The notes under the pieces: model-generated
The model's input: only the letters and a program-made list of their open reading frames with translations
Told to the model about the DNA's origin: nothing
The model's database searches: none
Position numbers and translations under genes: made by a program
In this document: in pieces, positions 1 through 54,776 of the stretch
Layout: every line of letters starts with the position of its first letter
How positions within the stretch are numbered: the first letter of the stretch is position 1
Origin: an uncultured candidatus Porisulfidus sp.
GTDB lineage: Bacteria; Pseudomonadota; Gammaproteobacteria; Poriferisulfidales; Oxydemutatoraceae
NCBI GenBank assembly: GCA_965215125.1
Contig: OZ244052.1
Coordinates: 1,280,001 to 1,344,000 of the forward strand
Reading direction: 5' to 3'
DNA length: 64,000 nucleotides

Positions 1-195
1 TCGCAATGTCGTAAATTGCTTGCCTAGGGTGAAAAAGCTAAACCGGCTCTCGCCATAATACTCGTATTCATCCTTTAACTCAGCTACAAAGTGATTCCAA
101 ACATAACGACACGCTCCGGCAGTTCCGTGTAATTGCCGATGCTTTTCATAGGTCGCTGGATACAAGCGATATCTGATTGTTCTATGAGTTTTCAT
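1..195 (-). CDS. tnpB: RNA-guided endonuclease TnpB, N-terminal part (runs off the window edge)
   Basis: Manual translation MKTHRTIRYRLYPATYEKHRQLHGTAGACRYVWNHF... is 59/65 identical to the N-terminus of the 11239..12432 TnpB. Confidence 0.9.
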   Translation of the reverse strand, partial: MKTHRTIRYRLYPATYEKHRQLHGTAGACRYVWNHFVAELKDEYEYYGESRFSFFTLGKQFTTLR

Positions 196-240
196 CGATG
201 TAATTTAACATTTCTTTGTCAAGTTATCTATATAATTCCC
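1..240 (-). mobile_element. TIR-bounded tnpB element, copy 1 (partial)
   Basis: TIR tgtcaagttatctatataattccc at 217-240 matches the TIR at 12454-12477. The spacing from element end to ATG is the same 45 bp. Confidence 0.85.
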
Positions 241-308
241 CACTCATTTATCCGAGAATTATATACTTTAAGTATGTAAATCATGTTTTACCGATTTCCA
301 CTTTGTTT

Positions 309-1102
309 TTAGTTCCTTTTAAGCCACTTACATGCTAATCCATAAGTTGTAACTTGAGGCTCAACATTCTTCTTAGGGTGGATATTAGATTTTAGTATCT
401 CAAATACAGGTTCGCTATCTAACCTAAACTTGATTTGTTTATAATGGCTTTTGCTATCATGTCTATCCTCAATCTGCCCTATTTGCTTATTATGCAATAA
501 TGAAAAAAACACTACTTTTTGATCATCCATTTGTTTACTGTGCCTGGCTTTAGAATTGCGGAGCGAGACATTAGTGCATAAAGTGTCAACTACTTTATTC
601 TTGTGGAATACATGAAAATGTTTTTTCTCTTTCAAGTCTTTTGCGAGACCAGGATATATACTAAGATAATCGGCATTCCCACCATCAAATAATGCCTTAG
701 CAAGTAATGATGCTAACATTTTTGGTTTGTTTAACTCTTCTAAGAGTCTTCTCATGTGTGGCTGAAGTCGTAGCTTTGCAGCTGTTTTATTAGAAAGATA
801 TTCATCATAAGTTGTTGGGTATGCATCAAGACAATCAATCATTATGTTTGCAATGTTCCCTAATCCTTGAAAGATAGTGTTAGTTTTAAGGCGATTTTAC
901 TGTATAAGAAAATCTGCCACCGCTCCCCAGCTTTTACTGAGTGATACCTGTCTTGTTCATCCGCAACATCTTTTTTGTCTGTATGATGCCCTCTTTGTAC
1001 ATGACCACCAATTAGTTCAGCAAAATGCTCTTCATTTGCATGCCCAGCTCTTTTTACCATGCTTGCGTGTTCGCTGGTCATAGCTCTTCGTTTGGGCATC
1101 AT
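309..1102 (-). pseudogene. Putative type II restriction endonuclease, frameshifted
   Basis: ORFs 860..1102 and 309..842 join into one frame (SKNRLKTNTIFQGLGNIANIMIDC) if 1 nt is added to the A4 run at 895-898. The gene overlaps the MTase stop codon. Function is inferred from context. Confidence 0.6.
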
Positions 1103-2025
1103 CCCAACACCAAGAGTTCATGTGAATGTTTTATATGATTGTTTGTTCCGTTCTCTATTCTATTCTTACCTATCCTTGTTTCACCTTGCCCTAGGGTGTA
1201 TTGCCACTTTACTTCTATAATATTAAAATCAGAATACCAGTCTCTTATCGTCTCACAATCATTATATGAAAGAATAAACCCGCCCTCATGCTGATATAAT
1301 AAATCGCGCAACAGTTCATGATTGAATTGGTTATGGTGAACAGGGAAGTTTCTTTGTGGATATATTCCCTTAAACATCTTGCTATTACCATTCAAATAAT
1401 AAGGGGGGTCACAATACATGAACGAATCTATGTGTTGAGGTATAGTTCTACTAAAGTTCCCCGAACATACCGATAGATTGGGACAAGTGAAGTTTCTAAC
1501 TTTATCAAGCAACCTAATATATCTGCTCTCTTCTTCGTATATTTTTGACATCCAACCTAAAAAACCAGGTCCGTAAGATAGATTATGATTAAACCAATAA
1601 TGGGCAGCTAAAGATACTTTGTCCTCTATTTTTTGTGACTTGTCCCAATGCTTACGAAGTCTGTTCTTTACTTGTGAATATTTACTCTTTGTTGGTTTCC
1701 ATTTGCACAAGCGGCTATATAGTTCTAATGGTTTCTTTAGTTGTATTTGCCAGTAATTTGTTAATATATTGAAAACATCATAACCTTTGACTTTTAACCC
1801 TAGCTCTTTGGCGCAAGCAATTTCAACACTTCCACCACCAAAAAACGGAGATACTAATGAAGTAATATCAGGTGGCAGATGTTCTATTATGTGTCCAACA
1901 GCAAGGGTTTTACCACCAGCATATCGCAATGGTAGCCCATTATACCTAGAATACTTATATTTGCCTTTTCCATTAAGCCTATTTAATAAAAGGCTTTGCC
2001 TAGTGTCCGGCTTTAATGCAAACAT
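1099..2025 (-). CDS. DNA adenine methyltransferase (Dam/D12 class)
   Basis: LRYAGGK, PFFGGGSV (motif I), YCDPPY (motif IV) and FILSYND motifs. Confidence 0.9.
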   Translation of the reverse strand: MFALKPDTRQSLLLNRLNGKGKYKYSRYNGLPLRYAGGKTLAVGHIIEHLPPDITSLVSPFFGGGSVEIACAKELGLKVKGYDVFNILTNYWQIQLKKPLELYSRLCKWKPTKSKYSQVKNRLRKHWDKSQKIEDKVSLAAHYWFNHNLSYGPGFLGWMSKIYEEESRYIRLLDKVRNFTCPNLSVCSGNFSRTIPQHIDSFMYCDPPYYLNGNSKMFKGIYPQRNFPVHHNQFNHELLRDLLYQHEGGFILSYNDCETIRDWYSDFNIIEVKWQYTLGQGETRIGKNRIENGTNNHIKHSHELLVLG

Positions 2026-2054
2026 GGTGACTACTTTATCAGTTTTTTATAAAG

Positions 2055-2455
2055 TTAATCTCTTGCCTCACGGACACGCCGAAGCATAAACCAAAACGAC
2101 TTCTGAGTAATACCTAGTTCCTTTGATAGCTGTAAAGACGATATACCCTTTCGCGCGGTCACTACCAAATAAATCGCTATATCCCAGCATTGCAAAGGTA
2201 GTAGCGATCTGTTCATTTCGCTATCGGTTTTTATCGTAAATGCTCTGCGACAACGATTGCAGTAATGATTGTACTTTCTAGGTTTGTATATTTTAACCTT
2301 CTCTATTTTTTTACATTTAGGACAGATAGGTTTGCTTCCCAAATCACACCTTCAATCTACCTAACTGCTTTTGTTTCAGTAGAAAATATTTTAAGTAATT
2401 CAGCTATGCTGATTGTTTGAGTCGTGTGTTTCAATTTCATCTCCATATTTTGCAT
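2055..2455 (-). pseudogene. IS1595-family transposase remnant (Zn ribbon + HTH only)
   Basis: CPKC...CNRC and KGISSLQLSKELGITQKSFWFMLRRVREA motifs. The upstream part ISIAELLKIFSTE.. carries an in-frame stop and a frameshift. The DDE domain is absent. Confidence 0.85.
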
Positions 2456-2559
2456 ACTAAAATATCAAAAATGGAAATAGTGTCAAGTGTCTTACAGATT
2501 TTATTTTCAATATTTTTAGTAGGATTTTTACATACTTAAGTATATGATTCTATTTATTT

Positions 2560-8280: not shown

Positions 8281-8453
8281 CCTCTTGAAGGGATGGCAGG
8301 CGCGATAGAACCGCCGTTTGTTGCAGTAGCACAAACGGCGTGACATTGTGCAGAACCTTAACACATATTGCAAAATGTAAAGCCTTTCGCCGGGGTGGTC
8401 TTCCCATTCTATGGAAGGGTGGCAGGCGTAACCTGACGGGAGGATCACAGCTG
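8281..8453. repeat. Dispersed REP-like repeat family A (degenerate copies)
   Basis: ggaagggtggcaggcgtaacctgacggg matches the copy at 54255-54301. Confidence 0.7.
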
Positions 8454-10895: not shown

Positions 10896-11191
10896 TTTGC
10901 ATAATCCTCGCTTGCGTCGTCTATGTGCAGAACGATGATTTCCGGTAAATCATAAGTATGCAGTTGCATCAAACGAGTTTTGCATGCCGAGACTTTAGCC
11001 CGCGCCGTTTTAGCACTGAGCAGATATTCTTGGTCGTTGACGACGCGTCCGTCCCAGCGATAAATAGAAGTCATAGGTCCTACAATATGAATACACGCAC
11101 AAAGTTTCTCCTCTATCAGTGTGTCGGCAATACGCTCTGCTTGTTCGTATTTATCTATACTGCTTTGCACCAAAGAAATTAAGTTGTCCAT
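10877..11191 (-). CDS. cutA: Divalent cation tolerance protein CutA
   Basis: LCACIH, SIYRWDG and HTYDLPEII motifs. Canonical position upstream of dsbD. Confidence 0.95.
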   Translation of the reverse strand: MDNLISLVQSSIDKYEQAERIADTLIEEKLCACIHIVGPMTSIYRWDGRVVNDQEYLLSAKTARAKVSACKTRLMQLHTYDLPEIIVLHIDDASEDYAKWVCNQ

Positions 11192-11345
11192 CCGTATTCT
11201 TAGCTAATGGGAATTATATAGGTAACTTGACAGACTTTTTAGCCTGCCTTGCCCACCCTATCTTTTTGACGCTTCATTGACCGACTTGTGTTGCCACTGT
11301 CGCCGTCTCCACACCCGGTTGCAGTACTCCCAGCCGCCAAAACGT
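11189..11345 (-). ncRNA. Candidate TnpB omega-RNA overlapping the tnpB 3' end and the TIR (boundaries approximate)
   Basis: By analogy with IS200/IS605 reRNA. A visible hairpin ATAGG..GGCAGGC-taaaaa-GTCTGTC..CCTAT has its 3' arm inside the TIR. Confidence 0.5.
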
Positions 11346-12477
11346 TTAATGCAGCATTTACATCCGCATTGTCCTCGTGTCCACAATACCGACACTTGAA
11401 AATTGATCGGGTCTTACGGCTTGCTTTATTTACGCTTCCGCATTGATTACAGGTTTGACTCGTATAGGCCGGATTGACCTTTTCTATACATGCCTTGTAG
11501 CTTAAGCATTGCTCCAGTTTATACCAGCCACTCTTTAGTATCTCCCTGTTCAAACCTGATTTTGCCCTCACATTCTTACCCGGGTTGTCTATCGTCCCCT
11601 TCGCCGACTTCGTCATGCCGGTTGTATTCAATCCTTCCATATACACAATGTCGTATTGGTCTGCTATTAACCGGCTGGTTTGATGACACCAATTCGCCCT
11701 CGCAAACCGCTCCGCTTGATACGCTTTCCGTAGCCTATGTTTTGCTAGTTTGCGCCTGTTGCTCCCCTTCACCCGTCTAGCAACCATTCGCTGATAACGC
11801 CTACGCCTTGCCTCCTTACGCTTTAAGTCGGGCAGGTGATACATCGTTCCGTCCGACAATGCCACCTGACCACAATTCCTATCTAGTCCTACTGCTGCCA
11901 CTGGATGCGACCTGCTTGGCACTTCCACTTCATAGGTGATATATGCATACCATTTACCACATTCATACTTGACTTGACCGGATACAAACTTCTCACCTTT
12001 ATACCTATCGCCACCGGCAAACTTCATCCAGCCTAGCTTCTGTATATACAAGTGACAACCCGATATCTTTGCCGATTGATAATTGATCGGGAATGACGGG
12101 CTATGCGTATATTTGCCGTGAAACTTCGGCAATACGTTGTTGCCCTTGAAAAATCCTTTGTATGCTATCTCTATCGGTTGTAATGATGATTTGACTATAT
12201 AAGTGGAATAACCTTGCAACCACTGGTCGCAATACTTTCTTAATGTCGTAAATTGCTTGCCTAGGGTGAAATAGCTAAACCGGCTCTCGCCGTAATACTC
12301 GTATTCGTCCTTCAGCTTGGCTACAAAGTGATTCCAGACATAGCGGCATGCGCCTGCTGTGCCGTGTAATTGCCGGTGTTTTTTCTGTGTCGCCGGATAT
12401 AAATGGTATCTAATTGTTCTATGGGTTTGCATTGATATAATTTAACATTTCTTTGTCAAGTTAACTATATAATTCCC
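11209..12477 (-). mobile_element. TIR-bounded tnpB-only element, copy 2 (1269 bp)
   Basis: 24-bp TIRs with 23/24 match (11209-11232 and 12454-12477). The 8-bp flanks tagctaat/tcgctaat match 7/8. Inserted between cutA and fxsA. Confidence 0.9.
11239..12432 (-). CDS. tnpB: RNA-guided endonuclease TnpB
   Basis: RuvC-I VGLD, RuvC-II VYMEGL, Zn finger CNQC..CRYC and RuvC-III NADVNAALN are all intact. Confidence 0.95.
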   Translation of the reverse strand: MQTHRTIRYHLYPATQKKHRQLHGTAGACRYVWNHFVAKLKDEYEYYGESRFSYFTLGKQFTTLRKYCDQWLQGYSTYIVKSSLQPIEIAYKGFFKGNNVLPKFHGKYTHSPSFPINYQSAKISGCHLYIQKLGWMKFAGGDRYKGEKFVSGQVKYECGKWYAYITYEVEVPSRSHPVAAVGLDRNCGQVALSDGTMYHLPDLKRKEARRRRYQRMVARRVKGSNRRKLAKHRLRKAYQAERFARANWCHQTSRLIADQYDIVYMEGLNTTGMTKSAKGTIDNPGKNVRAKSGLNREILKSGWYKLEQCLSYKACIEKVNPAYTSQTCNQCGSVNKASRKTRSIFKCRYCGHEDNADVNAALNVLAAGSTATGCGDGDSGNTSRSMKRQKDRVGKAG

Positions 12478-12512
12478 TCGCTAATTTTCATGATTTATTA
12501 TATTGTAACGTC

Positions 12513-54301: not shown

Positions 54302-54776
54302 GTCAAATATGGAAACCATAATCGGGCGGCGCAAAGCGATTGGGTTCTTGCAAAACGGGACTTTTTCAACAGCCCTAGAAGTGTCTGCACAACGTTACGC
54401 CGATTGACCTACTGTCTCAATCGGCAGGTATTGCATTTTGTAATGTATGCATTATCCAATGGTTGGGGTTCCGCACAACAAATTTAAAGTATATTTAATC
54501 AATTTTTCAGTATAATGATGAACACTCAAGTAGATTTACAGTACCTAGGAAGTCGGAGGTGACACGCCGCAGACAACTTTGGCATTAAAGCCCGTATATC
54601 ATATTAGGTTTAAAGCACCAGAGTTTATGATATAAAACTTAGCGAGACCTCCGGCGTTTCTTATTGCCAAGATTCAATTTGCACTAGTGCAGTACTTACT
54701 CGTCGCAAAATAGGATACAATACACGCCATAGTAAGATTATTAAAGAAACTATATTAAAGAATTAGGAGAGATTGT

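Follow-up and report, generated by a model that had tools for sequence, protein, structure and literature searches.

IS1595-type ends around a TnpB gene and its predicted guide RNA in an uncultured Candidatus Porisulfidus bacterium

Introduction

Cas12 has its ancestor in TnpB, which is also a compact genome editor and whose biology is known mainly from IS605 and IS607 elements, with their scarless excision. The present analysis concerns a transposon that carries tnpB in a stretch of 64,000 nucleotides, hereafter the window (positions 1,280,001 to 1,344,000 of contig OZ244052.1, assembly GCA_965215125.1), from an uncultured Candidatus Porisulfidus sp. whose genome is a single contig of 2.22 Mb, 99% complete. 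The element lies at window positions 11209-12477. In all likelihood it is a non-autonomous transposon of the IS1595 (DDE) family whose only cargo is an OMEGA module, that is, tnpB together with an omegaRNA in the 3' end of the gene. A first description of the locus, made from its letters and referred to below as the original prediction, had proposed an RNA-guided nuclease housed in IS1595-type ends; we report here how its parts fare when the genome, its relatives and the literature are brought in.

Results

The element is 1269 bp long and holds one intact tnpB (11239..12432, minus strand, 397 aa), its sole substantial open reading frame (ORF), with an intact RuvC D-E-D triad and a zinc finger. 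It is bounded by terminal inverted repeats (TIRs) of 24 bp and IS1595 type, the right-end TIR downstream of tnpB at 11209..11232 and the left-end TIR upstream of it at 12454..12477, where the tnpB start codon stands 45 nt from the element end; the two arms, separated by 1221 nt, match at 23 of 24 positions (96% complementary). A search for the 24-mer that allowed up to three mismatches gave three matches in the window, where 100 shuffles lead one to expect 0.00; the third of them (217-240, minus strand) is the end of a second copy that reaches beyond the window start. The flanks tagctaat (11201..11208) and tcgctaat (12478..12485) agree at seven of eight positions. The former, on the 3' side of tnpB, is the target site duplication (TSD) copy TAGCTAAT, which on the tnpB strand reads ATTAGCTA; the latter, TCGCTAAT, is the second TSD copy and carries one substitution. 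The neighbouring genes are cutA and fxsA, and in all four congeneric genomes searched (G001-G004) the spacer between them is unbroken, with a single TAGCTAAT exactly at the junction. Since these congeners keep an empty site with one TAGCTAAT, the flanking repeat is a true target duplication; G003, whose flanks are 97-99% identical to those of the window, is the closest of the four. On this comparison the insertion is precise, with an 8-bp duplication and one later substitution in the right-hand TSD copy. Both structural claims of the original prediction, a 1269-bp tnpB-only element with 24-bp TIRs matching at 23 of 24 positions and an 8-bp target duplication, are thereby confirmed, the first by the repeat search and the ORF scan and the second by the empty cutA-fxsA sites. 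Assemblies of four DNA runs show the insertion with both junctions in three cases, and none of their contigs spans an empty site; the sole recurrent joint in these contigs, from 11347 to 12174, is that of a known deletion copy at genome position 965778. A scan for promoters and terminators returned one promoter-like site against 3.0 expected.

The protein contains, in order, the Pfam domains HTH_OrfB_IS605, OrfB_IS605 and Cas12f1-like_TNB. It scores 193.8 bits against the NCBIfam model guided_TnpB (cut-off 100), and the second-best match, IS200_TnpB, gives 165 bits, under its cut-off of 425. Among 21 aligned relatives, D184, E266, D357, C331, C347 and C350 are invariant and C328 is found in at least 90%; the acidic triad and the zinc-finger cysteines align with solved TnpBs, and the ISDra2 TnpB structures (8bf8, 8exa, 8h1j) align over residues 9-376 (E 2.7e-27). 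This invariance agrees with the earlier view of tnpB as catalytically intact. The ratio of nonsynonymous to synonymous substitution rates (dN/dS) is 0.07-0.18 in eight of nine tnpB pairs, from which it follows that the nuclease is kept by selection, and 0.40 in the closest pair; the closest pair within the genome has a dS of only 0.055. Compared with its 405-aa sister copies, the window's copy has an extra base near 11252, by which only the final few codons are put out of register, and it ends in a stop codon 30 nt short of the element end; a TAA stop inside the right TIR, at 5 nt from the end, is seen at 42 of 59 loci in the first and at 30 of 58 in the second of the two surveys described below. 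Inverted terminal repeats are present and the tnpB 3' end is less than 250 bp from the element end. As a separate observation, a PDB chain of 540 aa deposited as 'Transposase' (9j09_A) matches residues 208-365 with E 7.8e-30, closer than ISDra2 TnpB, and the match covers an insert, SAKGT..NPGKNV..KSGLNR, that is conserved in this TnpB family.

With such a protein, one may ask whether the element is an ordinary TnpB-only member of the IS200/IS605 group (IS1341-type) that moves as single-stranded DNA by means of a Y1 TnpA, its terminal repeats being incidental. The typical TnpB protein, with IS200_TnpB as its second-best NCBIfam match, would suit this explanation, as would the finding that three of the five nearest plasmid-borne relatives inspected adjoin a Y1 tnpA gene. 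Yet these plasmid TnpBs are at most 35.5% identical to ours, and in a quick tree search, with the five top plasmid matches as outgroups, 43 TnpBs of the present type are split from them by a long branch (SH-aLRT 100), a topology that fits a single old capture of an IS605-type TnpB without amounting to proof of it. Y1 TnpA (PF01797) has no match in the 99%-complete one-contig genome, while the same search was positive in 6 of 14 control genomes. Nor do the ends form hairpins beyond chance: taken as DNA, 80 nt at each end and on both strands, they fold no better than shuffled sequences (z -0.5 to +1.5). In the passages of a 2026 review drawn on here (PMC13565253), TIRs and TSDs are said to be lacking in IS200/IS605 and IS607 elements alike, and IS200/IS605 elements to have subterminal hairpins and a Y1 TnpA; the element shares with IS200/IS605 TnpB-only elements and ISDra2 TnpB the protein family, the domain order, a 3'-end guide RNA (predicted here) and a pseudoknot near the guide junction, but departs from IS200/IS605 in all four of the traits just named. 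With 24-bp TIRs, 8-bp TSDs, four empty sites and 55 perfect TSDs among relatives, movement as an IS1341-type element is hardly credible, and the caveat attached to the original prediction, that the ends might prove to be of IS605 or IS607 type, is contradicted.

Members of the IS1595 family have TIRs beginning with GG, 8-bp TSDs and a transposase with a zinc finger and a DDE domain (PMC8101967, in the part of the text used). The element resembles this family (PF12762 / NF033547) in having GG-initial TIRs, 8-bp TSDs and the TIRs of members in G004, G001 and G006, and is unlike it in lacking a transposase, its whole length being tnpB with the embedded predicted RNA. As tnpB is its sole ORF and no DDE_Tnp_IS1595 transposase lies inside, it is a non-autonomous derivative and not an insertion sequence proper, and in view of the IS1595-type TIRs and 8-bp duplications it was probably moved by an IS1595 transposase from another element. 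Two IS1595 transposase genes (PF12762, E 1.1e-39) are intact in its own genome. They lie in identical 1294-bp elements, one of which has a perfect 8-bp TSD; compared by eye, the TIRs of these elements agree with that of the TnpB element at 18 of 24 ungapped positions. Closer ends were found in relatives. A pattern scan of 19 genomes of the family located the TnpB-type TIR in 11 of them and the reversed control pattern in none. The congeneric genome G004 has, between TIR matches at C2:89680 and 90955, an IS1595 element of 1276 bp whose 306-aa transposase is intact, and these TIRs agree with the 24-position pattern at 24 positions at one end and 23 at the other; the right-end TIR of the window's element matches them. 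Its counterpart in G001 has the same TIRs and a transposase with two in-frame TGA codons. G006 holds eight copies of a 1382-bp IS1595 element (TIR 22/24, perfect 8-bp TSD in all eight), whose 311-aa transposase is 59% identical to that of the window's genome; G006 itself gave no match in the TnpB search of related genomes. The possibility that the lineage has no DDE transposase with matching TIRs, set out beforehand as fatal to the original prediction, is thus removed by the G004 and G006 elements, and the proposal of mobilisation in trans by a DDE transposase is supported by cognate IS1595 elements in relatives, the element's own genome having none. Further afield, a Rhodothermales genome rich in TnpB elements contains an IS1595 element whose TIR is the left-end TIR of those TnpB elements, and other TnpB subfamilies have subfamily-specific TIR interiors in common with IS1595 elements (for instance L060 with L173). 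Because their ends track those of autonomous IS1595 elements in this way, the TnpB elements behave like non-autonomous elements. The ends may resemble the ISNwi1 subgroup of ISfinder.

Within the window, an IS1595-derived element with related TIRs lies at 254..2551; it starts GAGAATTATATAC and its flanks match at six of eight positions. It contains a truncated IS1595 transposase (2055-2342, minus strand; a 95-aa N-terminal remnant, NF033547 E 1.9e-10, below cut-off), a D12 adenine methyltransferase recognised by family match as cargo (1099-2025, minus strand), and two more ORFs of 80 and 177 aa, without family match, which are possibly a split restriction enzyme. That this IS1595-derived element begins its TIR as the TnpB element does had already been part of the original prediction, and the related TIRs and the transposase remnant bear this out. 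It lies 13 bp from the second TnpB copy, a junction also present in G003 (L031). In G010, the 2534-bp IS1595 element L173 (1369-3902) has a perfect 8-bp TSD and encodes its transposase and a 401-aa ORF that, read by eye only, looks like a DNA methyltransferase with an HNH-like C-terminus; L173 and L024 are both IS1595 elements with cargo other than tnpB.

Genome-wide, 14 TIR matches form seven plus/minus pairs. In five pairs, 1259-1269 bp in length, the tnpB frame is open (397-405 aa). A sixth is a copy of 588 bp with an internal deletion; the seventh, of 1899 bp, lacks a different internal part and has in addition received an insertion of about 1.3 kb. The TSDs of the seven pairs match at 8/8 positions in two, 7/8 in three, 5/8 in one and 4/8 in one, and the TnpB copies are 77-95% identical as proteins. 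The second copy enters the window with its left end (1..248, minus strand), which comprises tnpB codons 1-65, the TIR at 217-240 and a TSD copy at 241-248, the rest lying upstream; as a whole it spans genome positions 1278982-1280240 with an 8/8 TSD, and it has an orthologous insertion in G003 (L031). A deletion junction shared by the 588-bp and 1899-bp copies would prove transposition after deletion; it was looked for and rejected, and because the junctions differ, the two derivatives arose independently.

These copies also bear on whether the gene could be an immobile, domesticated TnpB, for example an RNA-guided regulator, seated within old IS1595 remnants. The lack of a matching transposase in this genome and the divergence of its copies would be in keeping with domestication. 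The catalytic triad, on the other hand, is intact, several copies occupy unrelated sites, each with its own TSD, and the closest pair differs by a dS of 0.055; the copy at cutA-fxsA is absent from all four congeners in spite of the 97-99% flank identity in G003, and the fixed, syntenic, single-copy distribution with a conserved guide that domestication calls for was not seen. We therefore regard a domesticated TnpB as very improbable.

Two surveys place the element in a wide family. The first covered 66 loci, seven from the own genome and 59 from relatives (four with no TIR at the first pass, three with no end motif), and found a GGGAATTAT-like motif at both ends in 59 of them, with TSDs of 8/8 in 26 and 7/8 in 10; of 61 related genomes, the own genome included, 21 have TnpB relatives at E 1e-20 or better. 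In the second, one genome per species was scanned with peptide patterns, at least 591 of the 609 stretches obtained are relatives, and the best 78 loci were taken; 58 of these best 78 have the end motif on both sides, with TSDs of 8/8 in 29 and 7/8 in 5. Together they yield 117 TnpB loci with GGGAATTAT-type ends (seven sites occurring in both surveys) and 55 perfect 8-bp TSDs. These loci and the seven pairs of the own genome also contradict the refuting case named with the original prediction, in which consistent TIRs and 8-bp TSDs would be missing from other copies. Several phyla contribute to the best 78 loci, which stem from Candidatus Porisulfidus, Arenicellales, Candidatus Oxydemutator, Rhodothermales and Caldilineaceae metagenome-assembled genomes (MAGs), among others, as well as from MAGs of Dadabacteria, Thermodesulfobacteriota and Dehalococcoidia, and several of their titles suggest sponge-associated bacteria. 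Taken together, the surveys show a TnpB lineage that is large, under purifying selection as judged from substitution rates, and always found with these ends. Two observations stand beside these counts. One Rhodothermales genome of 5.9 Mb (L120, L124-L158) contains more than 30 copies of the TnpB element. Some are long (about 1457 bp) and others short (about 1278 bp), the two forms differing by two nested left-end TIRs about 180 bp apart. In a TnpB subclade of the family from Arenicellales MAGs (L093, L095, L113, L150) the right-end motif is present, but the 220 bp upstream of the gene contain no left-end motif; the left end of these elements may be of another kind or more distant.

An omegaRNA-like scaffold is predicted from a covarying fold on the minus strand at 11209..11340, within the tnpB 3' end and the right TIR, and fills the last ~130 nt of the element. 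The alignment places its helices at 11337-11334/11324-11321, 11315-11311/11272-11268 and 11307-11299/11285-11279, all on the minus strand, followed by a variable terminal hairpin (~11248-11229, minus strand) that overlaps the inner TIR. Over an alignment of 31 sequences 97.4% of the cells are paired, a value reached by none of 500 shuffles (mean 89.7%); 11 of the 22 fold pairs have changed on both sides, and sliding the partners by one to three columns lowers the pairing to 28-58%. We propose a pseudoknot between a loop hexamer, GGGAGU (11326..11331, minus strand), and the AUUCCC at the terminus (11214-11209), the six outermost nucleotides of the TIR. The two strands pair in all 31 sequences, with two compensatory changes, the loop reading GGGAGU here and mostly GGGAAU elsewhere; in an extended set of 78 distinct rows, the pseudoknot has 6/6 pairs in 46 and 5/6 in 29, and GGGACU loops occur with termini AGUCCC or AGCCCC. 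We propose that the TIR terminus serves at once as transposase site, stop-codon context and pseudoknot strand of the predicted guide RNA. Going by TnpB biology as presented in the parts of PMC10691335 and PMC10711439 used here, the guide template would be the TSD and downstream flank (11189..11208, minus strand). Searched against Rfam with permissive thresholds, the segment 11100-12600 of the window matched no family.

The same scaffold recurs in shorter derivatives. The 588-bp deletion copy keeps 16 of 16 helix pairs and 6 of 6 pseudoknot pairs. In G003, two TIR-bounded mini-elements of 224-226 bp at separate loci (L025 201-424 and L026 201-426), 90.7% identical over their full length, have no tnpB; of the scaffold they retain 12-14 helix pairs out of 16 and 5-6 pseudoknot pairs out of 6, and neither has a recognisable TSD. 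Conceivably they parasitise TnpB as well as the transposase, with a guide RNA as their only content. A different kind of small element is seen in G001, namely a 223-bp miniature inverted-repeat transposable element (MITE; L027 201-423) with the same TIR type and a perfect 8-bp TSD, whose similarity to the TnpB element is confined to the TIRs and which has no -1 purine, the flank signal taken up below, in either orientation; as its left subterminal sequence resembles, by eye, that of the autonomous IS1595 element of the window's genome, it may derive from such an element.

Flanks were compared at 63 non-redundant sites with a TSD of at least 7/8, oriented by tnpB. At 61 of them a purine immediately precedes the left TSD copy on its 5' side (position -1; over all sites G 44, A 17, T 2, C 0). 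At the mirror position, a pyrimidine follows the right TSD copy in only 30 of 63, and the bias is thus not mirrored. The first TSD base is never G. By clade, the -1 base is A in 8/8 sites of the window's clade and G in 10/11 of one Rhodothermales clade. Because the guide would equal TSD plus downstream flank, position -1 is where a target-adjacent motif (TAM) would lie in the empty site; the candidate here is GAAA on the tnpB strand (12486..12489, minus strand), directly 5' of the TSD in the pre-insertion site, a hypothetical assignment. Once the site is occupied, this position is taken by the C of the element end ...TTCCC. As a control, 16 autonomous IS1595 insertions with perfect TSDs were oriented by the transposase gene, three registers being corrected by hand, one of them in a poly-A run; they have a -1 purine in 10 of 16 (3/8 in G006 and 7/8 elsewhere), as against 61/63 in the TnpB elements (Fisher p 6e-4). 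It is quite possible that the -1 purine represents a TAM, although we would stop short of calling this probable; RNA-guided, TAM-dependent cleavage of DNA by TnpB is a hypothesis, on which the flank bias bears indirectly.

The same figures have to be read against another explanation, in which IS1595 moves the element, the -1 purine is a target preference of the transposase, and TnpB with its RNA takes no part in retention or homing, being a selfish passenger or acting in interference with competing DNA or in regulation. The autonomous IS1595 elements outside G006, with their seven purines in eight, lean this way, IS1595 elements here also haul methyltransferases, and cut-and-paste DDE elements, so the 2026 review argues (PMC13565253), gain little from OMEGA systems. 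A transposase preference, however, does not readily account for a bias that is stronger in TnpB elements than in autonomous ones, that is asymmetric though the two TIRs are near-identical, and whose preferred base varies with the TnpB clade; C, the base supplied by the element's own end, never occurs at -1, and conservation of the RNA fold and of the nuclease residues extends over 44-100% identity. We consider this explanation unlikely, but clearly less so than the two rejected above.

One further repeat of the window stands apart from the element. A sequence of about 130 bp resembling a repetitive extragenic palindrome (REP) or a MITE (L001 2420-2560; window 8305-8399 and 54384-54425) has well over 100 matches in the genome at 75-100% identity.

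Discussion

The combination of IS1595-type TIRs, 8-bp target duplications and a conserved tnpB with a predicted RNA at its 3' end makes it very probable, in our opinion, that the element is a TnpB/omegaRNA transposon with IS1595 ends, mobilised in trans, a mobilisation that we infer from the shared ends only. One can picture its life as follows. An IS1595 transposase supplied in trans would bind the TIRs and move the element, and transcription across the tnpB 3' end would give rise to a scaffold of ~130 nt, whose last six nucleotides, AUUCCC, provided by the TIR terminus, would pair with the internal GGGAGU loop as a pseudoknot. By read-through into the flank, each copy would gain a guide made of its TSD and the downstream flank. 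Most speculatively, the guided TnpB might then cut an empty or precisely excised allele, recognised as TAM, TSD and flank, whereupon recombinational repair from the occupied copy would restore or spread the element, while the element end ...TTCCC, as a non-TAM, would shield occupied sites. This retention or homing step is put forward tentatively, as something that may happen and falls somewhat short of being probable.

Several observations weigh against this interpretation or some part of it. No IS1595 element of the own genome has the TnpB-type TIRs, the best agreement being 18/24, and for this reason present-day mobility in the window's genome is unproven; the autonomous IS1595 copies of G004 and G001 have no recognisable TSD. 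A transposase and tnpB within one TIR pair were found at none of the 144 loci examined (137 distinct), and an IS1595 transposase occurs within 3 kb of tnpB at two of 78 loci (L120, L130), each time in a separate, adjacent element. The copy in the window itself has a mutated TSD and a 1-nt indel in the C-terminal tail of tnpB. As regards the RNA, which is known here from structure-type signals in the sequence, some of the conservation has other causes, because the region is also coding and its terminus is also the transposase site; moreover, the pseudoknot has one mismatch in 29 of 78 rows, 20 of them near-copies from one Rhodothermales lineage. Finally, we keep the TAM as a hypothesis because the control is small (16 insertions) and leans the same way outside G006 (7/8), and a preference of the transposase may underlie the -1 purine.

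Association of TnpB with DDE transposases is in itself known. Six DDE-associated TnpB branches (DDE-1 to DDE-6), all with inverted terminal repeats, have been described, together with solo TnpBs that have the ends of transposase-bearing relatives and for which mobilisation in trans was inferred (Altae-Tran 2023, PNAS, PMC10691335, main text). The present family is like these in its inverted repeats, in the distance of less than 250 bp between the tnpB 3' end and the element end and in its solo copies; it differs in that the partner is IS1595, IS630 being the sole DDE family named in that main text, and in that no member, among 137 distinct loci, has both genes. The term 'IS1595' does not occur in the main text of PMC10691335, whose branch lists stand in supplements outside that search, and the portion of its text covered does not mention a stop codon in the TIR, a pseudoknot at the TIR terminus or a flank asymmetry. 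The 2026 review (PMC13565253, in the part used) lists ISL2, IS630 and IS1031 as bacterial partners in TnpB-DDE pairings and calls them rare, and a full-text literature search, extending to main texts and not to the supplements of PMC10691335, returned no description of a TnpB-IS1595 pairing. The suggestion that the pairing might be undescribed is therefore upheld for the IS1595 partner and has to be given up for DDE-associated, trans-mobilised solo TnpBs as such, which were published in 2023 (PMC10691335). In short, DDE-associated TnpBs with inverted ends and solo copies mobilised in trans were already known; what seems to be new is the IS1595 partner, together with the nucleotide-level fusion of TIR, stop codon and guide-RNA pseudoknot, the derivatives that keep only the RNA, and the asymmetry of the flanks.

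The geometry of the predicted pseudoknot recalls the ISXfa1 reRNA (right-end RNA), in which a pseudoknot is formed between positions -130 and -3 (PMC10711439, in the part used). The closest parallel in architecture is offered by Fanzor1 and Fanzor2*, which belong to eukaryotic cut-and-paste DNA transposons (Yoon et al. 2023, PMC10711439, same part). Like them, the family has a TnpB-type nuclease that often has a non-autonomous element, with its TIRs and short TSDs, to itself, and, as predicted here, a TIR that forms part of the guide-RNA scaffold and an RNA that continues past the transposon end (PMC10711439). Unlike it, the Fanzor systems are eukaryotic or viral and have longer proteins, and Fanzor1 RNAs are reported to be without pseudoknots (PMC10711439), whereas the bacterial element has a supported one; furthermore, its TSD, being 8 bp and variable, is unlikely to be part of the scaffold.

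In its widest form our proposal would be that an ancient TnpB lineage, spread across phyla, has permanently adopted IS1595 ends, with a fusion of the two at the nucleotide level, that it is kept because it homes into or restores TAM-bearing empty sites, from which the orientation-specific purine 5' of the 8-bp duplication would result, and that mini-elements arise from it which consist of the RNA alone and depend in trans on the transposase as well as on TnpB. Taken as a whole this is rather doubtful; if true, it would be the first bacterial case of an OMEGA nuclease serving a DDE transposon that makes target duplications, and a prokaryotic counterpart of Fanzor1. The finding bears on whether and how TnpB helps cut-and-paste DDE transposons of this kind. 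As the family is large and compact, with identifiable partner transposases and natural RNA-only derivatives, it constitutes a directly testable bacterial system, and it is also a source of nucleases of about 400 aa whose predicted guide scaffold ends in a fixed hexamer.

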